Shown: positions 833 through 49,385 of the stretch, in pieces
Numbering within the stretch: the first letter of the stretch is position 1
Layout of the letters: the number at the start of each line of letters is the position of its first letter
DNA from: an uncultured Thermoanaerobaculia bacterium
GTDB lineage: Bacteria; Acidobacteriota; Thermoanaerobaculia; Gp7-AA8
Direction of reading: 5' to 3'
NCBI GenBank assembly: GCA_964558905.1
Contig: CAZLGP010000055.1
Location: 10,650 to 74,649, forward strand
Length of the DNA: 64,000 nucleotides
Notes under the pieces: generated by a model
What the model saw: the letters and a program-made list of their open reading frames with translations, nothing else
Told to the model about the DNA's origin: nothing
Databases searched by the model: none
Position numbers and translations under genes: made by a program

Positions 833-2488
833 TCAGTGTGTCTTGACCGCCCCTTCCCTTCTCCACCTCTGCGCGATCGGCATGTCCCGGCCGCTGCCGA
901 AGGCTTTGCTCGACACGCGGATGGTGGGTGCCGCCTGGACGCGTTTGAACTCGTTGGTGTCCACCATCTTCAGAACCCTAGCGACGAGCTCCCGATCGTA
1001 GCCGCGCTCGGCGATCGCGTCCACTTCCAGCCATTCCTCGATGTAGAGCTTCAGGATTCCGTCGAGGACGTCGTACGGAGGCAGCGTGTCCTGGTCGGTC
1101 TGATTCGGACGCAGCTCCGCGGAGGGCGGTTTGGTCAACGTCGATTCCGGGATGATCTCGCGCTCGCGATTGATCCAGCGCGAGACGCGGTAGACCATGG
1201 TCTTGTAGACGTCGCCGAGGAGGGCCAGGCCGCCAGCCATGTCGCCGTAGAGCGTGCAATAGCCGACCGCGAGCTCGGACTTGTTGCCGGTCGTGATGAC
1301 CAGTGCCCCGGTGCGGTTCGACCAGGCCATGAGCAGGTTGCCGCGGATCCGCGCCTGGACGTTCTCGTTGGTCGTGTCGAACTTCTTCTCGCCGAACAGC
1401 TCGTCGAGGGCGGTCTCGTAAGGGGCGTAGATCGACGCGATCGGAACGATGTGAAACGCGATGCCGAGGTTCTCCGCGAGTGCACGGGCGTCATCGATGG
1501 AATGCTGCGAGGAGAACTGCGACGGCATGGCGATGCCGGTCACGTGCTCCGGCCCCAGCGCCTCCGCCGCGATGGCTGCGGTGAGCGCGGAGTCGATGCC
1601 GCCGGAGAGACCGATCACGACGTCCTGGAATCCGCATTTGTCAATGTAATCGCGAAGTCCGAGGATCAGGCCCCGGCCGATCTCCGCTTCCCCCGTCAGC
1701 GAGAGCACCGACTCGCACGGACTTCCCTGCAGGTGCACGAGCGAGCCGTGCTCCTCGAACGCCGGCGCGCAGAAGATCGTCTGGCCCGACTTGTCGAAGA
1801 CGATCGATGAGCCGTCGAAGAGGAGCTCGTCGTTTCCTCCGACCTGATTGACGTAGACCAGCGGCACGTCGTAGCGGCGCGCGATGCCGGAGAAGATCTC
1901 CCACCGCGCACGTCGCTTGCCCGCGTTGAACGGCGATGCGGAGATGTTGAGCAGCAGCTCCGCGCCTTGGCGCACCAGGTCGTCGACCGGATTGCCGCAG
2001 TACATCTTCTTGCCGAAGACGTCGTCGTCGAACCAGAAGTCCTCGCAGATCGAGACGCCCACGCGGGTGCCGGCGATCTCGACGAGGTGCACCTCGCATC
2101 CAGGCTCGAAATAGCGCAGCTCGTCGAAGACGTCGTAGGTTGGCAGCAGCATCTTTTTCTGCTCGAGCAGCACCCGCCCGTTACGCGCCACGATGGCCGC
2201 GTTGTGCAGCGGCTTGCCGCACCAGTACGTCGTCCGGATGGGGCAGCCGAAGATCAGCGTCACGTCGCCGGTCATGGCCGCGAGCGAGTCGCGGATCTCC
2301 AGCGCGCATTCGATGAAATAAGGCCGGTCGAGCAGATCGCGAGGCGGATAGCCGGTCACCGCGAGCTCGGGGACCAGCACGACATCCGCGCCCGCCTGTA
2401 CGCCCTCGTCGTAGGCGCGGCGGATCAGCTCGGCGTTCGCGCCCAGCGCACCAACCGTGGAATTGATCTGGCCGATGTAGACCTTCAT
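833..2488 (-). CDS. nadE: glutamine-dependent NAD+ synthetase (N-terminal nitrilase/CN-hydrolase domain plus NAD synthase domain)
   Basis: 551 aa. N-terminal CN-hydrolase region followed by an SGGIDS P-loop and the NAD synthase fold. Confidence 0.9.
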   Translation of the reverse strand: MKVYIGQINSTVGALGANAELIRRAYDEGVQAGADVVLVPELAVTGYPPRDLLDRPYFIECALEIRDSLAAMTGDVTLIFGCPIRTTYWCGKPLHNAAIVARNGRVLLEQKKMLLPTYDVFDELRYFEPGCEVHLVEIAGTRVGVSICEDFWFDDDVFGKKMYCGNPVDDLVRQGAELLLNISASPFNAGKRRARWEIFSGIARRYDVPLVYVNQVGGNDELLFDGSSIVFDKSGQTIFCAPAFEEHGSLVHLQGSPCESVLSLTGEAEIGRGLILGLRDYIDKCGFQDVVIGLSGGIDSALTAAIAAEALGPEHVTGIAMPSQFSSQHSIDDARALAENLGIAFHIVPIASIYAPYETALDELFGEKKFDTTNENVQARIRGNLLMAWSNRTGALVITTGNKSELAVGYCTLYGDMAGGLALLGDVYKTMVYRVSRWINREREIIPESTLTKPPSAELRPNQTDQDTLPPYDVLDGILKLYIEEWLEVDAIAERGYDRELVARVLKMVDTNEFKRVQAAPTIRVSSKAFGSGRDMPIAQRWRREGAVKTH

Positions 2489-2499
2489 GGGCTCCCGTT

Positions 2500-2602
2500 T
2501 CCAACGGAGCTCAATAGGGTCAGACCCGGAAACTCTACTTGAGTCCCGCCCCGCACCCCTTAAGTAGAGTTTCCGGGTCTGACCCTACCTGACTCCGTTC
2601 AC
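2500..2602. repeat. MITE-like palindromic element (37-bp inverted arms around GGGTCAGACCCGGAAACTCTACT)
   Basis: Left arm 2503-2539 is the reverse complement of right arm 2563-2599. A half-copy of the right arm recurs at 29603-29640. Confidence 0.7.
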
Positions 2603-2696
2603 AGAAAGTTTTGTTAACCCCGACAAACCTTCGACCACTCGCCACGTCTCTAGGGTTCGAATACACCGTATCTCAAATCGGCGCGCGGGGGGATCC

Positions 2697-5264
2697 ATGA
2701 AGCACATCGCGACCGTCCTCTTTCTGATTTGCATTTCAGTGCCCGCTGTCCGCGCCCAGGAGGCAACGCCGCGGCCGACGTATCGGGCCGTGCGCGCCGC
2801 GCAGGCGCCGGTGATCGACGGCGATCTCTCCGATGCCGTCTGGCAGAGCGCACCCGAGGCCACCGGCTTCACGCAGCGCGATCCGAACGAGGGCCAGCCC
2901 GCCACGCAGCAGACGCGGATCAAAGTTGCGTACACCGACGAGGCGATCTACTTCGGCGCGGTGATGGAGGACGACGGCAAGGTCACGCCGCTCCTTGCCC
3001 GCCGCGACAGTGACCTCAACAACGGGGACTACATCCGCATCAGCATCGACTCGCAGCACGACCGTCTGAATGGCGCGGCGTTCGTCGTGAATGCCTCGAA
3101 CGTTCAGATGGACATGATTCTCTACAACGACATCTACGACGACATCAGCTGGGATGCGGTGTGGGACTCGGCGACGAAGATCACGGAGAAGGGCTGGGTC
3201 GCGGAGGTGCGGATTCCGCTGTCGCAGTTGCGGTTCCCGGACAGGCAGGTCCACACGTGGGGCCTCAACGTCAGCCGCTGGCAGGCACGCCTGCGGGAGA
3301 GCACGCGACTCGTGCACACTCCGAAGACGGAGTCGGGGTTCGTGTCGCGCTTCGCCGATCTCGAGGGCATCGAAGGGATCAAACCGAGGCGCGCGTTCGA
3401 GCTCATGCCGTACGGAGTCGCCCGCTCGGACCTCTACAGCCGCGCGAACAACCCGTTCATCCCTGCCTCCGAGCATCGCGTCGACGCGGGCGTCGACCTC
3501 AAGTACGGCCTCACGTCGACGCTCACGCTCACCGGCACGATCAACCCTGATTTCGGTCAGGTCGAGGTCGATCCCGCGGTCCTCAATCTCTCGCAGTTCG
3601 AGACCTCGTTCCCGGAGAAGCGCCCGTTCTTCACCGAGGGTGCGAGCGTCTTCCGCTTCGGCAATGGCCCCGCGAATTCGCGGTGGGGCTTCAACATGTG
3701 GTTTCCGACCTTCTTCTACTCGCGCCGCATCGGCCGTGCGCCGCAGGGCTTCATCGACGCGGACCACGTCGACACTCCCGGCGAGACGACGATCCTCGGC
3801 GCCGCGAAGATCACCGGCAAGGTCGGCAAGGGCTGGACGGTCGGCTTTCTCGACGCGCTCACGGACAAGGAAGAAGGATGGTGGCGGGTTGGCGATGACG
3901 TCGGGAAACAGACCGTCGAGCCGATGACGAACTACCTCGTCGCCCGAGCCACGAAGGAGTACGGGAAGGACTCGCGCGCGGGATTCATGTTCACGTCCGT
4001 GAACCGGAAGCTGAGTGACAACCTTGAGGGGTCTCTGCGCGAAAGCGCGTACTTTGGCGGAGTCGATGGCTATTCGCTCTTCAAGGACAAGGCCTGGATC
4101 CTCGAGTGGCTCGCTGGCGGCTCCCTCGTCCAGGGCTCGGAGGATGCGATTGCCTCGACCCAGCTGAGCGGCGCGCGCTACTTCCACCGTCCCGACGCCG
4201 ATCACCTCGAGTACGACCCGACGCGCACATCGCTCTCCGGCTGGATGGGGCGGGTCATGCTCGCCAAGCAGCAGGGGAAGTGGCGGCCCAACATCCAGGT
4301 CCAGATGCTCTCCCCCGGCCTCGAGATCAACGACCTCGGATTTCTCCCGCGCACCGACGCGGTCTCGACCCATGCCGTGCTGCACTACCTGAACACCGAT
4401 CAGACGAAGTACACGCGCGAGATCAGCGCGTGGGTCGGCAAGTATCAGAACTGGAACTTCGACAAGGACCTGACCGCGAATGGCGTGTCGTCGAACATCT
4501 ACGTGCAGCTCAAGAACTACTGGTCGGTCTACATGTGGGGCGGTGGCCAGGTCGACCGCATCGATGACCGCATCACCCGAGGCGGTCCGGCGATGTTGTA
4601 TCGCGGGCACCGCTACGTGGGCGGCGGCTTCGGCAGCGACTCGCGGAAGAAGTTCAGTGCCTCCATCGAGACCGAAAGCGTCGTCGACGGCTTCGACGGC
4701 ACGTTCCGGATGTATTGGACCTCGTTGACCTACCGGCCGACGCCGGCCATCCGCATCTCCCTGACCCCGTCGTTCCGGCGACTGCACGAAGTCGCCCAGT
4801 ATGTGACGCAGGTCGCCGATCCTTCCTACGAGGCGACCTATGGGAAGCGGTACATTTTTGCCACGCTCGATCAGCGGACCCTGGACATCGGTCTCCGGAC
4901 GGAGTGGACGATGAACGCGCGCCTTTCCGCGCAGCTCTACCTGCAGCCGTTCGTCGCCAGCGGCGATTACAGCGGCTTCAAGTACCTCACGCGTGCTCGT
5001 GACGACGAGTTCACGCCGATCGAGGGCGTCCGTGAGACGGAGGAGGCGGGCAATCCCGACTTCAACTTCCGCAGCGTGCGCGGGAGCGCGGTCGTGCGCT
5101 GGGAGTTCCGTCCCGGATCGGCGATGTATGTGGTGTGGAGCGAGAACCGAGCCGACGTCGCGCCGTACGGCGACTTCCGGGTCCGCCGCGACTTCGGCGC
5201 GCTGCCCGACGCGCCGTCACAGGACGTGTTCCTGGTGAAGTTCTCCTACTGGCTGCCGATCTAG
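2697..5264 (+). CDS. secreted ~850-aa protein, DUF5916 / CBM9-like hydrolase family (tentative)
   Basis: Signal peptide MKHIATVLFLICISVPAVRA. Size and N-terminal carbohydrate-binding-like region recalled from DUF5916 proteins. Family assignment is from memory only. Confidence 0.4.
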   Translation: MKHIATVLFLICISVPAVRAQEATPRPTYRAVRAAQAPVIDGDLSDAVWQSAPEATGFTQRDPNEGQPATQQTRIKVAYTDEAIYFGAVMEDDGKVTPLLARRDSDLNNGDYIRISIDSQHDRLNGAAFVVNASNVQMDMILYNDIYDDISWDAVWDSATKITEKGWVAEVRIPLSQLRFPDRQVHTWGLNVSRWQARLRESTRLVHTPKTESGFVSRFADLEGIEGIKPRRAFELMPYGVARSDLYSRANNPFIPASEHRVDAGVDLKYGLTSTLTLTGTINPDFGQVEVDPAVLNLSQFETSFPEKRPFFTEGASVFRFGNGPANSRWGFNMWFPTFFYSRRIGRAPQGFIDADHVDTPGETTILGAAKITGKVGKGWTVGFLDALTDKEEGWWRVGDDVGKQTVEPMTNYLVARATKEYGKDSRAGFMFTSVNRKLSDNLEGSLRESAYFGGVDGYSLFKDKAWILEWLAGGSLVQGSEDAIASTQLSGARYFHRPDADHLEYDPTRTSLSGWMGRVMLAKQQGKWRPNIQVQMLSPGLEINDLGFLPRTDAVSTHAVLHYLNTDQTKYTREISAWVGKYQNWNFDKDLTANGVSSNIYVQLKNYWSVYMWGGGQVDRIDDRITRGGPAMLYRGHRYVGGGFGSDSRKKFSASIETESVVDGFDGTFRMYWTSLTYRPTPAIRISLTPSFRRLHEVAQYVTQVADPSYEATYGKRYIFATLDQRTLDIGLRTEWTMNARLSAQLYLQPFVASGDYSGFKYLTRARDDEFTPIEGVRETEEAGNPDFNFRSVRGSAVVRWEFRPGSAMYVVWSENRADVAPYGDFRVRRDFGALPDAPSQDVFLVKFSYWLPI

Positions 5265-6120: not shown

Positions 6121-7404
6121 ATGCGCGCCGTGAAGCGACCCCTCGGGTTTTTACTCGTATTCCTCGTGTGCTCAACAGTTTCCGGGCAGGACGCACCGCT
6201 GACACTCGAGCGGGCGGTGACCCTAGCCCTGGAGCGGAACGAGCGCGCCGCGATCGCCGATACGACGGTCGAGGCCGCCGAGGCGCGCGTGAGCCGCGCC
6301 CGCACCGCGTTCTTCCCCCGCGTCGATATCCTCGGCAACTGGCGCACCGACTATCCGGATCCCACCGACCGCACCCTCTCGACCTCCGCCCTCCTCACCC
6401 AGCCGATCTTCGATGCGCGCGTGTTCCCGTTTTTCCGCCAGGCGCGCTATCAGCGCGACGCCGCTCGTTTCGGCGCCGACGAGAGCAAACGGCTCCTTGG
6501 ATTCGACGCGGCGGTGGTATTCCTCAACACGCTCAGCTTCGAGCAGGTCGAGCTTGCCGCCGGGCGCCGCCGCGATTTCGCGCAGAGGAACCTCGAAGAT
6601 GTCCGCGCACGTTTCGAGGCCGGACTCGTCAGCTCGAACGACGTGACCCGCGCGGAGCTCGAGCTCGCGACCGCCGTGCGTGGCGTCGCCGAGGCGGCGG
6701 GCAACGTCCAGGCGGCGCGCGTCGATCTCGAGAATCTTCTGAAGACCGACATCGACGGACCTCTTGCGCGCCCCACGGCTCTCCTCGAAGCGGCCGCCAC
6801 GCCACCGGCGACGGACGTCCCGACCGCCCAGCAGCGTCGTGGAGACATCGCCGCGGAGCGGGCGAGCGTCGAGGCATTGCGTGCGTTCGCCGACGAGCCG
6901 CGCGCGCGCTTCTTCCCTTCCGTCGGGCTGAGCGCCCAGACGCGCAACATCAACGACGGTCCGATCACCTCGCGCGAGCAGGACGGCTTCGTCGGCCTCA
7001 CGTTCGCGTGGCCGGTTCTCGACGCCGGCGTGCGCGGCGCGGAGCGGCGCGAGCGCGAGGCGCTCGTGCGCGGCGCCGAGCTGGAGCTCGAGGCGTCGCT
7101 CCGCGGCGTCGAGCGGGAGCTCGCCAGCGCCGCGGTGCGGTTGAGCACCGAACATGCTGCGCTTCGCGAAGCGACGGCGGCCGTCCGCGCCGCGCGCAAA
7201 AACGCGGAAGAGACGACGATCCTCTATCGCGAGGGCCTCGCGAGCGCACTCGAGCTCGCCGACGCAACGCAGCAACTCTTCGAGGCCGAAGTGGCGGAGG
7301 CGACGGCCACGTATCGCATGGCCCTCGCGTACCTGTCGTTACGCGAGGCAAGCGGTGATGGCCCCGCCGGCGTTGCAGGCGCCGCGGGCGCTGGTGAAAG
7401 GTAG
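6121..7404 (+). CDS. TolC-family outer membrane efflux protein
   Basis: Signal peptide MRAVKRPLGFLLVFLVCSTVSG. Two TolC-like repeats rich in Leu/Ala/Arg. First gene of a TolC-MFP-RND operon. Confidence 0.8.
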   Translation: MRAVKRPLGFLLVFLVCSTVSGQDAPLTLERAVTLALERNERAAIADTTVEAAEARVSRARTAFFPRVDILGNWRTDYPDPTDRTLSTSALLTQPIFDARVFPFFRQARYQRDAARFGADESKRLLGFDAAVVFLNTLSFEQVELAAGRRRDFAQRNLEDVRARFEAGLVSSNDVTRAELELATAVRGVAEAAGNVQAARVDLENLLKTDIDGPLARPTALLEAAATPPATDVPTAQQRRGDIAAERASVEALRAFADEPRARFFPSVGLSAQTRNINDGPITSREQDGFVGLTFAWPVLDAGVRGAERREREALVRGAELELEASLRGVERELASAAVRLSTEHAALREATAAVRAARKNAEETTILYREGLASALELADATQQLFEAEVAEATATYRMALAYLSLREASGDGPAGVAGAAGAGER

Positions 7405-7432
7405 AAGAGAAAAGGTGAAAGAGAAAAACATC

Positions 7433-8566
7433 ATGCGCAGCGCGAAGCGGTCCCCCGTCTCCACTTTTCTCTTTTCCCTTTTCTCTTTGACCTTCGTGTC
7501 GTTCGTGTCTCTGACCTTCGTGTCCTGCTCCAAGGGCGAAGCCGAGGCAAGGGGCGGCCCCGGCAGCCGGAAGAGCATGGAGTTCCCGGTCGAGGTGAAG
7601 CCGGTCGAGTCGCGGCGTGTCGAGTACACCGTGACCGCCGTCGGCTCTCTCGACGCGTTCGAGCGTGTCGCTGTCACGGCGCGGGTCGCGGGCGCCGTCG
7701 AGCGCGTCAACTTCCGCGAGGGCCAGCTGATCAATCCGGGGCAGGCGCTCGTGGAGATCGAGCCGGAGCGGTACCGCCTCGCCGTCGCCGCCGCCGAGGC
7801 CACGCTGGAGAAGGCGGGCGCGGCGCAGGGCGAGGCGCAGGCAGGCTACTCGCGGCGTCAGGCCGCGAGCGAGAAGAACCCGGGACTGATTCGCGGCGAA
7901 GAGATCGAGACCTGGCGGACGAGAGTCCAGAGCACCGCGGCCGAGGTGTCGCAGGCGCAGGCGGCGCTCGCGCAGGCAAAGCTCAATCTGCGCGACGCCT
8001 TCGTGCGCGCGCCGGTGGCGGGGATCATCCAGACCCGCACGGTCGAGACGGGGCAGTACGTTCCGGTCGGGACCGTGCTCGCGACGCTCATGCGCCGGGA
8101 TCCGCTGCTGCTGCGTTTCCAGGTTCCGGAGCAGGACGCGCTGCCGCTGCGCACGGGCATGATCGTCCGGTTCAACGTCGCCGAAGGGGAGACGCAGCAC
8201 GAGGCGCGCGTCACGCACGTTGCGGCCGCCGCCAGCCAGGCCTCGCGCATGGTCGATGTCACCGCGAACGTGCTCAACGCGAACCGTCCCGATCTGCGGC
8301 CCGGCGCCTTCGCCCGCGTCACCGTCCCGATCGCATCCTCGCGCGAGGCCCCGGTCATCCCGCAGACCGCCATCAGACCGAGTGAGAAAGGTTTCCTCGC
8401 CTACACAGTGGAAGGTGGCGTGGCGCGCCAGCGCATCCTTACATTGGGGATGCGCACGGCCGACGGACAGGTGGAAGTGAAACAGGGGCTCACGCCCGGG
8501 GAAACGCTCGTGATTCGCGGCGCGGAAGCGCTGCGGGATGGCGCGAAGGTGAAGGTCACGCAGTAG
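7433..8566 (+). CDS. efflux RND periplasmic adaptor (membrane fusion protein, HlyD family)
   Basis: ATG at 7433 preceded by AAAGGTGAAAGAG. Lipoprotein-like signal peptide ending VSCSKG. Coiled-coil and beta-barrel MFP regions. Signal-peptide DNA carries a short tandem repeat CTTTGACCTTCGTGTC. Confidence 0.85.
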   Translation: MRSAKRSPVSTFLFSLFSLTFVSFVSLTFVSCSKGEAEARGGPGSRKSMEFPVEVKPVESRRVEYTVTAVGSLDAFERVAVTARVAGAVERVNFREGQLINPGQALVEIEPERYRLAVAAAEATLEKAGAAQGEAQAGYSRRQAASEKNPGLIRGEEIETWRTRVQSTAAEVSQAQAALAQAKLNLRDAFVRAPVAGIIQTRTVETGQYVPVGTVLATLMRRDPLLLRFQVPEQDALPLRTGMIVRFNVAEGETQHEARVTHVAAAASQASRMVDVTANVLNANRPDLRPGAFARVTVPIASSREAPVIPQTAIRPSEKGFLAYTVEGGVARQRILTLGMRTADGQVEVKQGLTPGETLVIRGAEALRDGAKVKVTQ

Positions 8567-39496: not shown

Positions 39497-40336
39497 ATGC
39501 ATGGGCCTGGCATCCTCGCGCGGACACTCTCAACGCCGACGCCCAAGGGGAAAGGCGCCGCGTGGCAGTATCACCCTCGGAGTGATCACCACTCGAAAGT
39601 CGCGTGCTGGGGGATTCTTTTCGATCTCCTGCAAAGTTCGGCACTGATTCGGGAGCACGTCACATCGGGAAGCCTCGCCTTCGGCATCAATCACGAAATG
39701 CGGGACTTCCGAACGGGGAGAAAGAAGGATCTCGATCTCGTTTTGGCAAAGCCGGCTGCCGGTTCAAACATCAAACCATTGACGTTTCGCATGCTCGCGA
39801 CCAAGTGGGCCATCGACCTGAACGAGTCCGAACGAGAAATTCTCGAACGGCTTCCGAACCTAGTCGAGCGTCGGGTTGGCGTGGTCCATCTCGCACTCGA
39901 GGCCAAGGCTTGCATGACGGAACACATGAAGGCCCGTCCGCGACTCTACGACGAGTTGAACTCGAGCCATGATGCCGTTCACGGTTCTGCCGAGATGGCG
40001 ATCGCGGCCGGTTTCGTCATGATCAACATCGCCGCCGACTTCATCTCGCCGGAGATGAACAAGTTCGGCGGCGCACTTCACGTCACGAAGCACGACCAGC
40101 CTCGCGTCACGGAGAAGGTGATCGAGAAGGTGCTCGAGATCCCGCGCCGCGCGACGACTTCGACCTCCGGATTCGACGCACTTTCGATCGTTCTGGTCGA
40201 TTGTCGCAACGACGGTCAAACTGCCGTACGCATCGTCGCGGACCCGCCGGCACCGAGACCTGGAGAGTCCGTCCACTACGCGGCCATGATCCAACGCATC
40301 GTGCAGCTCTACGAGTCGAGGTTCCCGCACACTTGA
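39497..40336 (+). CDS. uncharacterised protein with a canonical PD-(D/E)xK nuclease motif (candidate restriction endonuclease subunit A)
   Basis: KKDLDLVLAKP...VVHLALEAKACM gives D-x(37)-E-A-K. 279 aa. Start could be the internal ATG at 39698. Confidence 0.5.
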   Translation: MHGPGILARTLSTPTPKGKGAAWQYHPRSDHHSKVACWGILFDLLQSSALIREHVTSGSLAFGINHEMRDFRTGRKKDLDLVLAKPAAGSNIKPLTFRMLATKWAIDLNESEREILERLPNLVERRVGVVHLALEAKACMTEHMKARPRLYDELNSSHDAVHGSAEMAIAAGFVMINIAADFISPEMNKFGGALHVTKHDQPRVTEKVIEKVLEIPRRATTSTSGFDALSIVLVDCRNDGQTAVRIVADPPAPRPGESVHYAAMIQRIVQLYESRFPHT

Positions 40337-41154
40337 AAAGGCACGTCAGGACGAACGCCTTCGAGCTGGCCGATGCGCTAAAGCGGGCGAAGCGTCCTCA
40401 CCCACCGGCATCGGGACCGGAAAAGAAGTGGTCCAAAGACGCGCGGAAGGACTGGACGGATGAGAAGCGCGCCTACTCCGAACGCCTCTCCAAAGAGTTC
40501 TCGAAGGCGATCGAGCAGAGCTTCCGCTCACACTTTCCGCAGACCCGCTCCGGTGAAGGGCTCGGAACGAATGCGGCGAGCGCACAGGGCATCAAGAGCG
40601 TCGATGTGGCCTTCAACATCGAAGGGCTGTTCCTCGGCCTGGGCGTCAGTGTGAAGGCGATCGGAATCCCCGAGGGGAAGAGTGGGTACGCGCACAATTT
40701 CAAGCGGATCACCGAGGAGTGGACCACCGAGACGGTGCTGTACCACCGCTACATGCCCGTCTCGATCATCGTCGGAATCTTCTTCATGCCGTGGGACTCG
40801 GTCGAAGACCGCTCGACGGTGACATCGCTGAGTTACGCGGTAGCGAAGTTTCAGGGGTTCCAAGGACGCCAATCGATCCGTGAGGATTTCGAGCTCATGG
40901 AGCGCATTTATGTTGGGCTATTCAAACCCGACGGCGCAGTGCAATTCCTCGACGTCGGTAAAGGCCAACTCGGCCCACGCGAAACTCCGCAGGCCGATCG
41001 TCTCCAGACTTTCGAGCAGGTGAAGGACGGTCTCGTACGCTTGTTCCGCCTTCGAAATCCGAAGCTGCGTGTCCGCGGAATGCCGGATCTCGATCGCGCC
41101 GGCCACGTCATCGCACCGATTCCAGAGCTCGACGAAGCCTTCGAAGACGACTGA
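40333..41154 (+). CDS. uncharacterised protein, translationally coupled partner (candidate subunit B with a degenerate D...SxK motif)
   Basis: TTG at 40333 overlaps the upstream TGA (TTGA). SVDVAF...GLGVSVKAIG sits at the equivalent position, followed by a hydrophobic strand SIIVGIFFMPWD that parallels FVMINIAADF of gene A. Confidence 0.45.
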   Translation: MKRHVRTNAFELADALKRAKRPHPPASGPEKKWSKDARKDWTDEKRAYSERLSKEFSKAIEQSFRSHFPQTRSGEGLGTNAASAQGIKSVDVAFNIEGLFLGLGVSVKAIGIPEGKSGYAHNFKRITEEWTTETVLYHRYMPVSIIVGIFFMPWDSVEDRSTVTSLSYAVAKFQGFQGRQSIREDFELMERIYVGLFKPDGAVQFLDVGKGQLGPRETPQADRLQTFEQVKDGLVRLFRLRNPKLRVRGMPDLDRAGHVIAPIPELDEAFEDD

Positions 41155-41557
41155 CGTCCTCGCACTCGCACTCCCAGATCACCAGCACTTTCCATCCGAG
41201 CTCGCGTAACTGCCCCTGCACGCGTTCGTCACGCCGGACGTTCGCGGCGAACTTGTCCAGCCAGAACTGCCGATTGCGCGATGGCGTGGTCGTGCGCGGA
41301 CAGCCCTCATGCCGGTGCCAGAAGCAACCATGAACGAAGACTGCCCATCTTCGTGTGCGGTTTGCGACGTCCGGTGATCCTGGGAGATCGCGGTTGTGAA
41401 CTCGGAAGCGATGGCCAAGCGCGTGTAGAAATCGGCGCACGGTCACCTCGGCCGAGGTTCCATGCTGGCGGATGCGCCCAAGCCTCTGGGAGGTCGCAGG
41501 ATCTACGACGAGCTCGGGCTTCGACTGGCCTGCGTGACTTCGCGGCGGGCGAGGCAC
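41108..41557 (-). CDS. vsr: very short patch repair endonuclease
   Basis: TSAEVTVRRFLHALGHRFRV...FVHGCFWHRHEGC...GWKVLVIWECE. Confidence 0.9.
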   Translation of the reverse strand: MPRPPRSHAGQSKPELVVDPATSQRLGRIRQHGTSAEVTVRRFLHALGHRFRVHNRDLPGSPDVANRTRRWAVFVHGCFWHRHEGCPRTTTPSRNRQFWLDKFAANVRRDERVQGQLRELGWKVLVIWECECEDVSRLRRLRRALESVR

Positions 41558-41560
41558 GCC

Positions 41561-42841
41561 TCAGATGATCGCACGCAAGGAATCGCCGCGCATCCGCGCG
41601 AGATGCTCTTCGAGCGCCTCGAGAAATCCGGCAGGGAACCGCAGCTTCGCGCGGTAGGCACGGGACAGAAAACCTGCGGTCGCCTTTGCGGAAAGTGGCT
41701 CGGTGTCGAACTGAAGAAAGGCTTGCAGCGGAGTCGCTGCCACGCGAACAGGCCACTTCGAAACGGCTGCCGCGAACCTGATACCGTCGACGTTGTACGC
41801 CGCCGTCGGCCAGGCCACGGCCGTGCCCAGCGGCGCGTCGCCGACGGCGTCGTATTCGGCGGGAGCGCGCAGTCTTCGCCCGATCCACTCGGCCGCGTTC
41901 ACCGTTACGGCGTTGCCCACGAGCTTCCAGCGTGCGCCCCGCTTGACGACGGATTCCGCCGGCAGCGTCCAATCGGCCTCGAAGCCCTGCATCCTCTCGG
42001 CATCACGCAGGTCCGGCTTCACGACGTTTCCGTTCGGAAGAATGATCGCAGGCGGAGAGGGGATGCCGATGGTAGAGCCCCCCTTGAGTGTCGGAACCGA
42101 GTCGACGGCCCATCCCAGGCCCCGAAGCCCCTCCGTCCAGAAGAACCCGCACGCCACCTCACGAAAGGATCGTCGGTCCTCGGGCTCCGCAGCATCGTCG
42201 ACCAGCAGAACGGAACGCGGGTCGTGCAACCGCGAGGCGAGAATGTAGACCCTCTCGCGGCGCTGTGGCACACCGAACGCGCGGCTGTTGACGACGCGGT
42301 ACGCCCACTTGTAGCCGAGTCTCTCGAACTCGCTGAAGATCAGGTCGAGCGCCCGCCCCCCTCCCAACTGGAGCATGAACGAAACGTTTTCCAGCAGAAC
42401 CCACTCGACGCGCTTGCGGTCCAGGAGACGGAACACCTCACCGACGAGACCGGAGCGCGCTCCACTGATTCCGGCCGTCTTCCCGGCCTGGCTGAGATCC
42501 TGACAGGGAAAGCCCGCCGCCAGCAGGTCCGTCTCCTTCGGGAGCGACCGCAATTGGCGAACGTCGTTGGCCCGCCTCACGGCCGGAAAGCGCGCATCGA
42601 GGACCGCGTTCGCGGCGCGGTCGAACTCGCAAAGGAGTGAGGCCTCATGACCGGCCTGCGACAAGCCGAGCTCGATGCCACCAATGCCAGCGAAGAGACC
42701 GACCGCCGAAAGGCCTGGGAGGGTTACGTCGGTCTTGGGCGCCGCGGAGCGCTTCGCTCCAACGAGCCGCAACTGAGAACGTCCTCCACTCATGATGACG
42801 GCCCCCAGTCTACCTCGGCGCCGCCCAACCTGCGGCGCCAT
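41561..42841 (-). CDS. dcm: DNA (cytosine-5)-methyltransferase
   Basis: Motif I LFAGIGG. Motif IV GFPCQDLSQAG. ENV and QRRERVYIL motifs. Lies immediately upstream of vsr. Confidence 0.9.
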   Translation of the reverse strand: MAPQVGRRRGRLGAVIMSGGRSQLRLVGAKRSAAPKTDVTLPGLSAVGLFAGIGGIELGLSQAGHEASLLCEFDRAANAVLDARFPAVRRANDVRQLRSLPKETDLLAAGFPCQDLSQAGKTAGISGARSGLVGEVFRLLDRKRVEWVLLENVSFMLQLGGGRALDLIFSEFERLGYKWAYRVVNSRAFGVPQRRERVYILASRLHDPRSVLLVDDAAEPEDRRSFREVACGFFWTEGLRGLGWAVDSVPTLKGGSTIGIPSPPAIILPNGNVVKPDLRDAERMQGFEADWTLPAESVVKRGARWKLVGNAVTVNAAEWIGRRLRAPAEYDAVGDAPLGTAVAWPTAAYNVDGIRFAAAVSKWPVRVAATPLQAFLQFDTEPLSAKATAGFLSRAYRAKLRFPAGFLEALEEHLARMRGDSLRAII

Positions 42842-42959: not shown

Positions 42960-43352
42960 GTGGAGAATGCGAAGACCTGCCCCCAAGTGGTCGCGGGCGT
43001 GGCGCCGGCGGTGCGACCGACGGGGCGGATGCACGACCGCGCACGACGCGTCCTCCTCCGCCAAAACACCGCGGCTGACTTCCCGTCGACAAACGAAAAG
43101 CGAAGGTGTGACCCCGGGGAAACGTGGCAACCCGGACAACGCTACATCCACCACGCGAGCCGCGGCTCCAACGTGATGCTCTTCGTCCGCTCGTCGAACA
43201 AGGACGCCTACGGTCGAACCCCGGCCTTCACCTTCCTCGGCCCAGCGTCGTATCAAAGCCACGCCGGCGAGCGTCCGACGGCCATCGTGTGGAAACTCCA
43301 CCGCCCGATGCCGCTGGACGTGCTCGGCGTGGCGCGGGTCGCGGCGGGGTAA
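42960..43352 (+). pseudogene. possible remnant of the C-terminal domain of a larger protein
   Basis: NVMLFVRSSNKDAYGRTPAFTFLGPASYQSHAGERPTAIVWKLHRPMP looks like a conserved domain; a DUF3427-like helicase C-terminus is a guess only. Upstream residues are low-complexity. Confidence 0.2.
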
Positions 43353-43389: not shown

Positions 43390-43962
43390 ATGTCCTCGTC
43401 AGATGAGCGCTGGATTCGGCGTGCCGTCCTGCAACAGATTGACACGGAGCACGGGCGTGCCGGCGACACGGTAGTGAAAGAGGAATTTGTGGTTCGCCAC
43501 GGAGCGGCGCGAGTTGACATCGCGGTCTTCAACGGTCGAATGGAGGCCGTCGAGATCAAGAGCGATAACGACACTCTGCGCCGGCTGCCCGGCCAGATCG
43601 AGATGTTCGCTAGCGTTTTCGATACCTTGACGTTGGCTTGTGGCCTTCGTTACTCAGAAACCCTACTCCGCGACGCACCTACGTGGTGTGGAGTAATCGA
43701 ACTCTCGGAACGAGGTCAACGAGCACTCCGTTCTGCCGACCAGAGTCCGCTCCAGGAGCCGCGCCACATGGTCAAGCTTCTTCACAGATCAGAAACTCTC
43801 AACGCACTTCAGGCTCTTGGCGTTCGACCAAGACCCTCAGCCAAGCGTCGTGATCTCTACGAGGAACTGTTGCGCACCGTGGATCTCACGCGCCTCAGAC
43901 GAATCGTACTAACCACGATCAAGCTGCGAGTTGGAGGGGCACAAACACCATATGGTGGTTAA
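43390..43962 (+). CDS. sce7726-family protein
   Basis: RVDIAVFNGRMEAVEIKSDNDTLRRLPGQIEMFASVFD matches the remembered sce7726 signature (EIKSD.D.L.RL..Q). 190 aa. Confidence 0.55.
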   Translation: MSSSDERWIRRAVLQQIDTEHGRAGDTVVKEEFVVRHGAARVDIAVFNGRMEAVEIKSDNDTLRRLPGQIEMFASVFDTLTLACGLRYSETLLRDAPTWCGVIELSERGQRALRSADQSPLQEPRHMVKLLHRSETLNALQALGVRPRPSAKRRDLYEELLRTVDLTRLRRIVLTTIKLRVGGAQTPYGG

Positions 43963-44926
43963 TCCCCGCCCGCAGCCAAGTCTGCGCCGAGCCGGTCTTT
44001 CTCGCCTCTCTAGACATGGTGTCGATGTATCTGTCACCAGCAGAGAAGCCAGCGCCACAATACTCTTTGCGAAGACTGAGCATGCGTGCTTGGGCCGGGT
44101 ACTGCTTGAAGCCCTCCCCCTCGTCGTTGAAAACACCCTCTCCGCGCATGACGACGAAGTCACGCTTGTGGGTGTACCTAATTGAAGCGCTGAAGTTGGC
44201 GTTTGGTGGCGCCTCTCTGAAGTCAGCCGTCACCACAGTGTAGTCACCGTACGAAGTTGGGGCTTCGATGCCGCGGCGCTCGATTGATTCCCACGCCAAC
44301 CATTCGTTACGCGGAAGGAGGTACTGGTTGTTTTTCGGGAGACCAGACAGATCGATTGGGAATGAGCCACCCATGATGGTCGCCGATGCCCATCGCGCGT
44401 TCTTCGCAAGAAGCTCTGCAGTTCCCTGCATGCGAGTTCCATCAATCATCGAGCCGAAGTCGAGGAGGACATCAAGGTTGGCGGGGGTTCGTCCGAGTCG
44501 TTCGAGAGTTCGACCGACCTCCTGCAGGAGACGAGTCGATACGAGATCCGCGCTACTGATTCGGATCGATGCGGCGTTAGCACCATCACTCCGCATCCAC
44601 GCGCATAGTTCGTCAAAGAATGCAGACGTGTACAGCGGAAAGACCACATACGGAAGCGCGCCAGCTTCCTTGAGCCGTACGATCACATCGATCGCCGTGT
44701 GGACACGCCAGGAACTATCGACTCGCAAAAAATCCAGAAAGAATGGACGCTTGACACCCCAAGACCCGACCATCGATTTAACTACTTCTCCAGCTGACAT
44801 CAATCGCGATGGAACGAGTTCGAGCAACGGCTTCATGCGAGCTCGCTGCTCGCGAGTCAGCTGCGCGAGAGCGCACTGTTCGGCGACCTTCCAACGCAAC
44901 ACAGGTGTATACATAGTATTAATCAT
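43919..44926 (-). CDS. sce7725-family (beta-family) protein
   Basis: N-terminus MYTPVLRWKVAEQCALAQL matches MYxPxLRxKxxExxAL of sce7725 proteins. 335 aa. Its 3' end overlaps the sce7726 gene by 44 bp, convergent. Confidence 0.55.
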   Translation of the reverse strand: MINTMYTPVLRWKVAEQCALAQLTREQRARMKPLLELVPSRLMSAGEVVKSMVGSWGVKRPFFLDFLRVDSSWRVHTAIDVIVRLKEAGALPYVVFPLYTSAFFDELCAWMRSDGANAASIRISSADLVSTRLLQEVGRTLERLGRTPANLDVLLDFGSMIDGTRMQGTAELLAKNARWASATIMGGSFPIDLSGLPKNNQYLLPRNEWLAWESIERRGIEAPTSYGDYTVVTADFREAPPNANFSASIRYTHKRDFVVMRGEGVFNDEGEGFKQYPAQARMLSLRKEYCGAGFSAGDRYIDTMSREARKTGSAQTWLRAGINHHMVFVPLQLAA

Positions 44927-46094
44927 CCCAACTGACCTCCGGAAATAAGCGCCTGACCTCGCCTTGACCTAGCATGTTTCCTAGTACGCGATACGATCCG
45001 CTCTCATAACGAACTCGCCCTGCAACAATCGCCGGATGAATTCGGAGTTCTCTCGCTAGCAACTCCGCCGCCTGGGGAGAACGAAGGCTGCTGGCGGGAC
45101 TGCGACGCCAAGCGGAGGCAGGGATGAGACGTTCTCTCGCCAATTCATCGGCTTGCCTTTCGCTTTCGTCTGTGGCCGATGTCTCGAGATCATCAACAAA
45201 CACTTGTCGTGCCTTACCGGCCGCGACTATCAAGTGCGCCATTTCATGCGCCAGAGTGAACCAGAACGAATCGATGCGATCGAAACGCAAGGTGAGGCCA
45301 ATTACTGACAGATTCCCGTCTGCTATCGCCACTCCGTCTAGATGGGTCTTCGGCAGTGGCGGCTCAATTACGACCGGTACTCCGTGACGACGCAGGAACT
45401 CTACGGCCAACCTCGGTCCTGCGTCCGCCCAGCTCAACTTAATGGTCTCGCGAAGCAAGTCATCCAAATTACCATCGATACCCGGCGAAGATCGGGCCAT
45501 CGTCTTACCTACGTGGTAGACGCGCGCCGTCCACGCGACAATCGCCTCCTTATCCACCCCGGTCGAACGAGACGTCCGTCTGAACGCGGCTGCGCCACTA
45601 AGTCGGACCACTGGCTCAACATATACGCGGACCGCCTCGGCAGCGTGCGTGTCGAGCCAACCCCGCCGCGCGATTAGAGTAGCCATTCCACCTTTCGTAT
45701 ACTTGACCTTTGCGCGAGACTGAACCTCGTTGTTTGTAATGAGAGCATCCGCGGGAATACCAAGGCCCTCGTTCAACGCTCGGATCATGGAGAGGCTGAG
45801 GCCACGCTTTCCTGAAAGGACCTCCGATACGCGGCTCGGAGAACCTAAGAACTTAACCAAGTCGCGTGGCGAAAGACCCTGTTGCTCCATTCGAAAGCGA
45901 ATCGCCTCAACGGCTGATGCAGGTTCGTGAGGTGGCAAGTGCCGGCGCTCGTAATCCTCGATTAACAGCGTGAGAAGTCGTATGCGGTTACGTGTTGCGT
46001 CGTCACGCGGCACCTCCTTCCCGAGGAGACCTTCCAGCTCATCAAGTGCGGCAGTGTAAGCCTCTGGTGTGTCAAGAATGCCGAACGTGTCCAT
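44919..46094 (-). CDS. HigA-like HTH antitoxin fused to an ImmA/IrrE (M78) metallopeptidase domain
   Basis: XRE HTH (LSPRDLVKFLGSPSRVSEVLSGKRGLS) and HEMAHL zinc motif. Directly downstream of higB. Confidence 0.75.
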   Translation of the reverse strand: MDTFGILDTPEAYTAALDELEGLLGKEVPRDDATRNRIRLLTLLIEDYERRHLPPHEPASAVEAIRFRMEQQGLSPRDLVKFLGSPSRVSEVLSGKRGLSLSMIRALNEGLGIPADALITNNEVQSRAKVKYTKGGMATLIARRGWLDTHAAEAVRVYVEPVVRLSGAAAFRRTSRSTGVDKEAIVAWTARVYHVGKTMARSSPGIDGNLDDLLRETIKLSWADAGPRLAVEFLRRHGVPVVIEPPLPKTHLDGVAIADGNLSVIGLTLRFDRIDSFWFTLAHEMAHLIVAAGKARQVFVDDLETSATDESERQADELARERLIPASAWRRSPASSLRSPQAAELLARELRIHPAIVAGRVRYESGSYRVLGNMLGQGEVRRLFPEVSWDD

Positions 46095-46096
46095 GT

Positions 46097-46381
46097 TTAC
46101 AGCTCCCAGCCGTCATACTCCTCATGTGTACCAGCCCGAAGGCATATAACGAGCTGTTCCTCAAAATCGACTCTGACCAATAGCCGGTAGCGCCCGCCCT
46201 TGATATTGAAAATGATCCGGTTCTTCGAGATGAAGCTAGCATGCTGATAACGCAACTTGATGTCCTGGGGCGTCCTCCAAATCCCGGTCAGAACCTCGGA
46301 TTCCCAAGCAGCCAATTGAGGCCTCGCGTCGGCGTGAATGCGACTGAAATCTCGCAGCACCTGCTTTCCAATAAGCTTCAT
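46097..46381 (-). CDS. higB: type II toxin-antitoxin HigB-family toxin
   Basis: MKLIGKQVLRDF...NRIIFNIKGGRYRLLVRVDFEEQLVICLRAGTHEEYD. Confidence 0.8.
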   Translation of the reverse strand: MKLIGKQVLRDFSRIHADARPQLAAWESEVLTGIWRTPQDIKLRYQHASFISKNRIIFNIKGGRYRLLVRVDFEEQLVICLRAGTHEEYDGWEL

Positions 46382-46444
46382 ACGTTCCCAACATCGGCGC
46401 CAATCTTAATTCACATTTCCCAAAATGGGAAGCGCGCCGGCAGA

Positions 46445-46472
46445 AATAAGGACGCATTTCTGCGTCCTTTAA
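46445..46472 (-). terminator. rho-independent terminator hairpin downstream of nrdJ
   Basis: AAGGACGCA-GAAA-TGCGTCCTT followed by ATTTCT on the minus strand. T-rich on the plus side as well. Confidence 0.5.
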
Positions 46473-46505
46473 TCGCCGCGAGTGAACGCGGCAATACTTC
46501 TTGCT

Positions 46506-49385
<2,880 letters not shown>

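Follow-up and report, generated by a model that had tools for sequence, protein, structure and literature searches.

A probable four-gene PD-lambda-2-type anti-phage cassette with an antisense dual-coding beta-cII junction in a Thermoanaerobaculia bacterium

Within a 64,000-nucleotide stretch of DNA from an uncultured Thermoanaerobaculia bacterium of the Acidobacteriota (hereafter the window), two convergent genes overlap at their 3' ends: cII, a member of the sce7726 family on the plus strand, and C, a member of the Beta protein family on the minus strand. Our analysis makes it likely that this pair forms part of a horizontally acquired, four-gene anti-phage cassette of the PD-lambda-2 type (43390-46381), which keeps the ancestral convergent beta-cII core of the gop-beta-cII system of satellite phage P4, and in which cII would add a nuclease activity. 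All four gene families and both parent systems are known already; the four-gene variant is so far undescribed. The features in question are listed here with their positions in the window, gene ends being those of the open reading frames (ORFs).

43390..43962, plus strand: cII, sce7726-family gene, 190 amino acids (aa), a convergent transcription unit of its own
43919..43962, both strands: antisense dual-coding junction, 44 bp, coding for about the last 15 codons of each gene
43923..43976, both strands: local imperfect hairpin within the overlap, with the palindrome CACCATATGGTG at its centre
43919..44926, minus strand: Beta protein / PD-Lambda-2 component C, 335 aa, predicted TIM-barrel-like, last gene of the minus-strand operon
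44919..46094, minus strand: PD-Lambda-2 component B, 391 aa, an Xre-type helix-turn-helix (HTH) domain fused to an ImmA/IrrE (M78) metallopeptidase
46097..46381, minus strand: PD-Lambda-2 component A, 94 aa, HigB/RelE-like, first gene of the operon
46382..46505, minus strand: intergenic stretch of 124 bp that separates gene A from the ribonucleotide reductase gene, putative promoter site of the operon

An earlier reading of these letters without database searches (the sequence-only reading) had described two convergent genes within 43390-44926 with a 3' overlap of about 44 bp (43919-43962). The ORF map and the stop codons bear this out exactly, with ORFs at 43390-43962 (plus) and 43919-44926 (minus) that share 44 bp. 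Both of the strings that it quoted are present as well, EIKSDNDTLRRL as residues 55-66 of cII and MYTPVLRWK as residues 5-13 of the minus-strand protein. The ORFs are supported as genes by matches to family hidden Markov models (HMMs) with E-values from 1e-37 to 5e-49, their products have hundreds to thousands of homologues, and the identical protein pair has been called on an independent public assembly, on a contig where all four genes of the cassette are called. cII and C are real genes, not chance ORFs.

The same reading had taken the pair as a two-gene cassette, but the minus-strand gene is the third of a HigB-like/Xre-M78/beta operon, which makes the unit here one of four genes. Component A matches PD-Lambda-2_A (PDLC03981) at 1.2e-33 and HigB_toxin (PF09907) at 1.5e-21. 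Component B matches PD-Lambda-2_B (PDLC03982) over its full length at 3.1e-116, carries PF06114 and PF01381 domains, and has an intact HEMAH motif, the residues H283-E284-x-x-H287 (HExxH) being invariant. Component C matches PD-Lambda-2_C (PDLC03983) at 1.5e-40. The three genes are contiguous and co-directional, with gene A 2 nt ahead of B and B overlapping the start of C by 8 bp (ATGATTAA), and in PADLOC they are modelled as the parts of a single system. Judged by these matches, the minus strand carries a complete PD-lambda-2 operon; the locus departs from the three-gene composition of PD-lambda-2 by the addition of cII, which converges on C, is interlocked with it and co-evolves with the operon. 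A scan of the locus for the sigma-70 consensus, the intergenic region 46382..46505 included, returned 0 promoter-like sites. The closest relative is found in an Acidobacteriota metagenome-assembled genome (loci L004/L006), with a C protein 59% identical and the same four genes, which there also adjoin a ribonucleotide reductase gene.

The PD-lambda-2 system of E. coli strain ECOR42 (Vassallo et al. 2022) is an experimentally validated abortive-infection defence in which B is toxic alone, A neutralises it and C is required for defence (PMC9519451). The window matches its A, B and C genes in the same order and orientation and in an equally tight operon, and the window system is probably of the abortive-infection type and toxin-antitoxin-like. 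By homology, A and B would form a toxin/antitoxin-like pair, with B toxic alone and A neutralising it, and C would be needed for an infecting phage to bring about arrested growth or death. The difference lies in cII: the E. coli system lacks it, native E. coli A-B-C loci forming a separate cII-less clade, whereas the clade of the window adds cII as a convergent, overlapping and co-evolving gene. The domains of A and B are shared with HigB-HigA and with Xre-ImmA/IrrE (COG2856-type) toxin-antitoxin-like pairs, and A-B also exists as a two-gene module; in PD-lambda-2, however, the roles are reversed, since it is B that is toxic and the HigB-like A that neutralises (PMC9519451), and the window adds C and cII.

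We surveyed the distribution of these genes from two starting points. The first survey was seeded with C and took one genome per species, giving 80 loci from phyla that include Acidobacteriota, Patescibacteria of the candidate phyla radiation (CPR), Chloroflexota, Bacteroidota, Nitrospirota and Omnitrophota; as it is biased to the clade of the window, a second survey, seeded with B and run on metagenomes, served as a correction. Loci within each survey are related, and the counts are not counts of independent events. In the C-seeded survey cII is present at 69 of 80 loci, at every one of them tail-to-tail with C and overlapping it; the full A-B-C+cII set is present at 62 of 80, most of the others being cut by contig ends, and B and C are tightly spaced at nearly all loci. 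The 54 informative loci of the B-seeded survey comprise 20 with A-B-C+cII, 18 with A-B-C only and 16 with A-B only, and all 20 cII genes lie tail-to-tail with C, with overlaps of 32-74 bp (mode 50 bp, all 2 mod 3). The sequence-only reading had described the two families as often found together in mobile or defence contexts, and had suggested a survey of the orientation of the pair: it recurs on plasmids, in prophages, in phages and at 69/69 cII-bearing genome loci, and its orientation is tail-to-tail at 69/69 genome and 20/20 metagenome loci that carry cII.

Across 63 four-gene loci, distance matrices are correlated at 0.81 for B and C, 0.75 for B and cII, 0.68 for C and cII and 0.67 for A and B (Mantel p = 0.001), which means that cII and the operon are passed on together as one block. 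The outgroup architectures in a neighbour-joining (NJ) tree of C (P4, Rhodococcus, Rac, Rhizobiales) carry cII without exception; this tree, which has no support values, suggests that cII is ancestral to the pair. In the corresponding tree of B, the E. coli loci form a coherent cII-less A-B-C clade and the A-B-only loci another clade, and the window falls in a mostly cII-bearing remainder with scattered losses. A six-frame rescan of nine of the 11 cII-less loci of the C-seeded survey and of two E. coli A-B-C loci found no remnant of cII, and cII-less loci have no recurrent replacement gene in its place. We rejected the idea that cII is a universal fourth gene of PD-lambda-2, given its presence at 69/80 C-seeded but 20/38 B-seeded loci and the E. 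coli clade without it; cII is a frequent, ancestral and dispensable fourth gene.

Two cII-less loci of the surveys deserve mention for their own sake. In Nitrospira moscoviensis (NZ_CP011801, locus L014), where A, B and C are present, the last 47 bp of C are shared with a convergent 333-aa ORF that has a Hypoth_Ymh domain (6986-7987, minus strand; PF09509 at 1.5e-35), a different gene in the position and reading phase that normally belong to cII. On an Ignavibacteria contig (locus L030, 1854-3029), C is split into two ORFs of 106 and 270 aa and cII was not detected; this is probably a decaying copy.

These data also bear on the notion that the window holds two independent neighbours, a HigB/Xre-M78 toxin-antitoxin pair (A-B) next to a separate beta-cII module. 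Each half does exist by itself, A-B as a free-standing pair on an Acinetobacter plasmid (L086), on a Paraburkholderia plasmid (L087) and at 16 of the 54 informative metagenome loci, and beta-cII on a plasmid of Rhodococcus and in prophages of the Rac-like kind in E. coli. The two are nevertheless joined by the 8-bp overlap of B and C in the window and by tight spacing at nearly all loci, the distances of B, C and cII are strongly correlated, C is required for E. coli PD-lambda-2 defence (PMC9519451), and PADLOC counts as one system the three genes that all find their match here. Independent neighbours are already disfavoured by this evidence, and we hold them to be improbable.

The minus-strand member of the pair had been assigned by the sequence-only reading to the sce7725 family. 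Against that model (NF033831, cutoff 60 bits) C gives no match at E <= 10, nor does it match any other NCBIfam family at that threshold, and six other Beta-type partners of cII likewise fail the model (best 12.3 bits), on which grounds we rejected sce7725 membership of C. At best there is a faint likeness to sce7725 over the N-terminal 35 residues of one E. coli protein (E = 0.099). C instead matches Pfam Beta_protein (PF14350), a family named after the P4 beta gene, with 168.1 bits (4.7e-49; residues 6-329 on profile positions 1-340 of 342; gathering threshold 27) and phrog_9159 at 5.9e-49, while its match to the PADLOC 'beta' model is weak (1.4e-4). Because the sce7725 test failed whereas PF14350 and PD-Lambda-2_C matched, the sce7725 label is wrong, and 'beta family / PD-lambda-2 C' is right.

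An AlphaFold model of C has a predicted local distance difference test score (pLDDT) of 89.7 and an (alpha/beta)8 pattern, so that C is predicted to be a triosephosphate isomerase (TIM) barrel. Foldseek returned generic TIM barrels only, with template modelling (TM) scores of 0.35-0.45, and at the sequence level no link of C to solved structures or to other Pfam families was found. The many polar residues that are invariant in C (E16, E36, R122, D156, D228, the SASIRY motif, RGE, D298 and NHH) suggest that it may be an enzyme. A literature search on PF14350/Beta_protein found nothing relevant.

The plus-strand gene, by contrast with C, fits its half of the NCBIfam sce7725/sce7726 pair fully, and of the HMM check that had been proposed for the two genes the sce7726 part was passed and the sce7725 part, whose model matched no Beta-type partner tested, gave no match. 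cII scores 129.7 bits on NF033832 against a cutoff of 70 (E 1.2e-37; residues 6-180 on profile positions 3-182 of 184), which leaves about its last 10 residues outside the match. It also matches the PADLOC 'cll' model at 1.3e-32 and phrog_984, and a public protein identical to it carries Phage_P4_cII (PF26915) in its precomputed annotation. A tblastn search with cII against phages led to the cII gene of satellite phage P4, which bears the RefSeq label 'sce7726 family protein' and itself scores 151 bits on the NF033832 model. The family is large, with 5,930 clusters at 50% identity (E <= 1e-3).

Thirteen positions of cII are invariant in 16 homologues and retained in the protein of the window (E32, G38, R41, D43, E55, K57, D61, R65, L66, Q69, P97, W99 and R180), and EIKSDNDTLRRL covers their ExK...D...RL core. 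The AlphaFold (AF2) model of cII, with a pLDDT of 92.1 and only the last 5 residues disordered, has an alpha-beta-beta-beta-alpha-beta core (helix 6-21, strands 28-35, 40-47 and 51-57, helix 66-74, strand 79-84) and an extra C-terminal helical domain. In this model D43 lies on strand 2 and E55/K57 on strand 3, as the PD-(D/E)xK topology demands (D in strand 2, (D/E)xK in strand 3). The best Foldseek match is 3dnx (SPO1766; E 7e-7, TM 0.49/0.62), and weaker matches include SfsA, a type IIL enzyme, NucS, the nuclease domains of Can2/Card1, and YaeQ. cII is accordingly predicted, on the strength of its model, to be a restriction-endonuclease-like protein of the PD-(D/E)xK nuclease fold. With the PD-(D/E)xK nucleases 3dnx, SfsA, NucS and Can2/Card1 it shares the predicted core topology and the D...ExK signature, but it has no sequence-detectable relationship to them, and it appears to differ in the extra C-terminal helical domain; since no link at the sequence level was found, the assignment is a structural one. 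We found no nuclease assignment or biochemical data for cII in the literature, although the curated texts of PF26915 and NF033832, or Ghisotti 1990, may hold some.

Homologues of cII also occur without beta, in Myxococcus phage Mx4 and in a Bacillus phage, and cII must therefore have an activity of its own. This distribution could likewise be taken to mean that cII is a housekeeping or lysogeny gene of mobile elements, or a phage recombination exonuclease, that is carried along with beta and stands outside defence: the family takes its name from the P4 gene that adjoins int, and one Gordonia phage homologue is annotated 'exonuclease'. In the window, however, there is no integrase or phage context and restriction-modification genes lie next to the cassette, the evolution of cII is coupled to that of A, B and C, and the cloned P4 gop-beta-cII locus confers defence as a whole (PMC9122126). 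We regard a role for cII outside defence as very improbable. Within the four-gene cassette, the structure and context of cII make it most likely that it would add a nuclease activity working with C, either as an effector or as a nucleic-acid-sensing partner.

In the record of Gordonia phage DumpsterDude (MT024859, locus L097), a clear cII/sce7726 ORF (2417-3118, plus strand; HMM E 5e-65) has no GenBank annotation. It shares 89 bp (2 mod 3 once more) with gene 33, a convergent member of the Beta family, and the record annotates a short 'gene 32' on the opposite strand inside it. Annotation pipelines miss or mislabel these genes, one phage record being left without its cII gene, and defence-finder tools would call the locus of the window a three-gene PD-Lambda-2 and ignore cII.

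The junction between the two genes has a fixed anatomy. C ends with a near-invariant W-L-x-A-G-I-N-H-H and then a helix ...Q-[IV]-[AS]-N-L-x-stop, and cII ends with ...[RK]-x-x-W-R-S-D-(6 residues)-G-G-stop. In the window the cII stop codon TAA (43960-43962) lies opposite the Ile322-Asn323 codons of the AGINHH motif of C, with cII ...CCA TAT GGT GGT TAA facing C ...ATT AAC CAC CAT ATG. At the majority of loci, the reverse complement of the cII stop reads (A)TT-A(AY) or (A)TC-A(AY) and so belongs to the codons for Ile-Asn in AGINHH, and the Gly-Gly (or Gly-Asp) with which cII ends lies antisense to the His-His of C. The W-R of cII in turn lies antisense to the I-A-N of C. At A-B-C loci without cII, C keeps AGINHH, loses its 'ANL-stop' ending and gains long variable tails. 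From this change of the C tail where cII is absent, together with the antisense correspondences, it follows that the conserved end of each gene dictates the tail of the other.

The shortest overlap in the C-seeded survey measures 26 bp and the longest 191 bp, lengths peak sharply at 50 bp (32 loci), and all are 2 mod 3 (69/69), while the exact position of the stop differs between loci. An overlap is present in 71 of the 72 beta-cII pairs compared, its length always 2 mod 3 with a mode of 50 bp. Stops can shift only by threes in frame, and the constant phase therefore means that the junction has been inherited without a frame-breaking indel. Synonymous sites are frozen inside the overlap: a fourfold-degenerate Ala codon of C is GCC in 44/44 loci, a Gly codon of cII is GGT in 38/38, and the mean codon entropy at conserved C residues falls from 1.66 to 1.08 bits (p = 0.01). 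The conserved cores of the two proteins abut within about 2 nt on opposite strands, and no point mutation can therefore separate the genes without damage. The beta-cII pair is inherited as one block through this interlocked junction, and the overlap is a conserved dual-coding junction across many phyla and phages, not a local accident. What is seen in the window is the local form of an ancient interlock: the conserved end of C (...AGINHH...Q-I/L) meets that of cII (...W/L-R) on the other strand, and the non-essential tail of each protein is read across the conserved end of its partner. The junction is a clean case from nature of antisense dual coding that has lasted long, with some 50 bp in one fixed phase on opposite strands and a range from CPR bacteria to Acidobacteriota, Actinomycetota plasmids and phages. 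We did not find an antisense overlap of fixed phase spanning phyla described in the literature, although curated family entries or Ghisotti 1990 may record some of it.

The overlap, or one of its ORFs, could in principle be an artefact, whether a chance ORF, a run-on frame or a sequencing error, and the disorder modelled for the last residues of cII, the end of the HMM match short of its C-terminus and the variable stop position might be cited for this. Both stops are, however, fixed by the sequence, the identical pair is present in the independent assembly, and even the smallest overlap among the homologues (26 bp) takes in conserved residues of both proteins, with synonymous sites frozen on both strands. 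We regard an artefact as effectively refuted, its probability being next to nil.

Exceptions to the phase were found in P4 (a gap of 27 bp), in an E. coli locus (18 bp overlap) and in Pasteurella phage Pmp11 (abutting genes), all from divergent gammaproteobacterial lineages. The E. coli locus (strain 2014C-3075, NZ_CP027447, locus L094, 2918-6015) consists of a GNAT acetyltransferase gene, an ImmA/IrrE peptidase gene whose product is short (282 aa, no HTH), beta and a convergent sce7726 gene, and adjoins a relaxase gene; its 18 bp are the only overlap found that is not 2 mod 3. In Pmp11 (OR544128, locus L099, 2501-4793) a P4-like trio adjoins a CI repressor gene: a 131-aa gene in the position of gop, with no homology to gop, is followed by a Beta-family gene and a convergent 260-aa cII, the stop of which exactly abuts that of beta (0-bp gap).

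Whether the overlap is mainly a regulatory device, by which polymerase collision and/or complementary 3' mRNA ends (for example as RNase III substrates) would control cII and A-B-C reciprocally, is a question that the sequence-only reading had raised in the form of antisense transcriptional interference. Such a role is compatible with a four-gene cassette, and we think it unlikely while allowing it a modest chance. As the two genes converge and leave no room for a terminator between them, each transcript must run on into the other gene. The overlap has never been lost at the 89 cII-bearing loci of the surveys, and P4, the gapped case, has an annotated terminator exactly at the junction, which suggests that transcription across the junction matters. 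The 101-nt junction of the window moreover folds unusually stably on both strands, with z = -2.83 (plus) and -3.20 (minus) against shuffles, compared with z of about -0.6 and 0 for the flanks; its hairpin (43923-43976), bracketed by an inverted repeat TAACCAC...GTGGTTA (43910-43919 / 43952-43961), is not conserved at other loci.

Against a regulatory role, RNAalifold on 28 in-register junctions gave a consensus of -1.13 kcal/mol, which is essentially no structure, and the palindromic TGGCGA-N6-TCGCCA hairpin reaches 68% pairing with no covariation and is not above shuffles. Over 67 loci the junction has a mean z of -0.41, not significantly different from internal controls at -0.07 and -0.15 (p = 0.17 and 0.10), and a consensus scan found promoter- and terminator-like sites not to be enriched, with no promoters and with terminators at background level. 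On the RNAalifold energy, the lack of covariation and the 67-locus comparison we rejected the idea that the overlap holds a bidirectional terminator or an RNA structure under conservation; the strong hairpin of the window is a local feature. The abutting conserved coding cores suffice to explain why the overlap persists, and we infer that the interlock alone accounts for it and that regulation is not needed, though convergent transcription may still be put to regulatory use.

The P4 gop-beta-cII locus reportedly goes back to Ghisotti 1990. Its layout is gop(+) beta(+) facing cII(-), with beta and cII homologues convergent as in the window, and this classical arrangement of the pair is the ancestral one. 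P4 separates beta and cII by a 27-bp gap with an annotated terminator, whereas the genes of the window overlap; its cII, at 264 aa against 190 aa, has an additional region at the C-terminus; and its beta is very divergent from C, which reaches the PADLOC 'beta' model at just the 1.4e-4 given above. Searches with phmmer and an HMM built from P4 gop found no gop homologue in the window or at any surveyed locus, and A and B fill that position. The P4 system is validated (Rousset 2022). Its protection extends to lambda and P1 (PMC9122126), and a phage accessory protein acts as the trigger (preprint 10.1101/2023.04.06.535777). The view of the sequence-only reading that the function of the families is unassigned is outdated at the level of the system, P4 gop-beta-cII and E. 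coli PD-lambda-2 both being validated abortive-infection defences (PMC9122126, PMC9519451). In our literature search no link between PD-lambda-2 and cII was found described, although curated Pfam/NCBIfam entries or Ghisotti 1990 may record some.

The same two families also form stand-alone convergent pairs, which have no A or B upstream. They are found in E. coli prophage Rac-SA53 and in chromosomal Rac-like lambdoid prophages, where they are cargo between the prophage replication genes and hokD, and on Rhodococcus plasmids, with overlaps of 35-41 bp that are again 2 mod 3 (35 bp on a Rhodococcus plasmid, from its RefSeq annotation). A blastn probe for sce7726 genes of the Rac-like prophage type detected them in 93 of 5,426 complete E. 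coli genomes. Plasmids of Sinorhizobium and Agrobacterium carry a hypothetical-XRE-beta-cII arrangement with a 47-bp overlap (RefSeq annotation).

Several observations weigh against the reading of the window as a four-gene defence cassette in which cII contributes a nuclease. The fold matches of cII are modest, at best TM 0.49/0.62, no link at the sequence level ties it to a characterised nuclease, a solved structure or another Pfam family, and the cII of the window has Leu at the Trp of the W-R motif, which is Trp in most homologues. For C, a generic TIM-barrel match gives no chemistry. cII is present at only 20 of the 38 A-B-C loci of the B-seeded metagenome survey, and the NJ trees of C and B on which its history is drawn carry no support values. 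The E. coli ECOR42 PD-lambda-2 clone leaves 396 bp beyond C, and two native E. coli HigB-ImmA/IrrE-beta loci, taken as proxies for that of ECOR42, lack cII; from the clone end and these native loci it follows that defence in that clade needs no cII. Experimental support is, finally, confined to the cII-less E. coli PD-lambda-2 and to P4 gop-beta-cII as a whole locus. Because whole clades defend or persist without it, cII would be an accessory and not an indispensable component of the four-gene cassette. What the cassette brings together matters nonetheless: PD-lambda-2 and P4 gop-beta-cII, catalogued separately, have one conserved core in common, and a predicted nuclease that co-evolves with three genes offers a testable handle on how these systems work.

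A bolder proposal, to which we give a real but minority chance, is that the convergent beta-cII pair is the ancient interlocked core, TIM barrel plus nuclease, of a modular abortive-infection superfamily, that cII is its overlooked nuclease effector or sensor, that E. coli PD-lambda-2 is a derived cII-less form, and that the overlap is functionally exploited. If so, the superfamily would include gop-beta-cII, PD-lambda-2, XRE-beta-cII, GNAT-M78-beta-cII and the bare prophage pair, and the use of the overlap would lie either in binding a dangerous nuclease to its controller, so that the two must be inherited together, or in reciprocal expression through convergent transcription.

The surroundings of the cassette fit an acquired element. 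GC content drops to 0.555-0.575 over 43400-46400, exactly the four-gene cassette, against 0.63-0.66 in the flanks. This contrast, together with the neighbouring Dcm-Vsr genes and type IV restriction/DUF3427 gene fragment, argues that the cassette is foreign in origin, and the same features mark the region as a defence island. No tRNA or integrase gene was seen near the cassette.

On the cII side, a 130-aa ORF (42960-43352, plus strand) matches a type IV methyl-directed restriction enzyme/DUF3427 protein over no more than the last ~65 residues of the latter (PADLOC mREase_IV at 2.6e-13; Pfam DUF3427 below threshold). At the same position L004/L006 has a full-length 1050-aa PLD-helicase-DUF3427 gene, coding for a helicase-nuclease, so that the ORF of the window is a truncated remnant. 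The Dcm cytosine-5 methyltransferase gene (41561-42841, minus strand) and the Vsr mismatch endonuclease gene (41108-41557, minus strand) sit where the rest of the type IV gene would be, which suggests that they displaced it; GC content in the Dcm-Vsr region is about 0.60, below that of the flanks. Beside them, two plus-strand ORFs with no family matches (39497-40336 and 40201-41154) could be the cognate restriction endonuclease.

On the other side the cassette abuts a class II ribonucleotide reductase gene (46506-49385), as it does in the Acidobacteriota relative. This gene is a single 959-aa ORF in the window, and at positions 1555-4448 of L004 it is called as two overlapping ORFs (562 and 402 aa), perhaps because of a frameshift or a fault in the assembly there.

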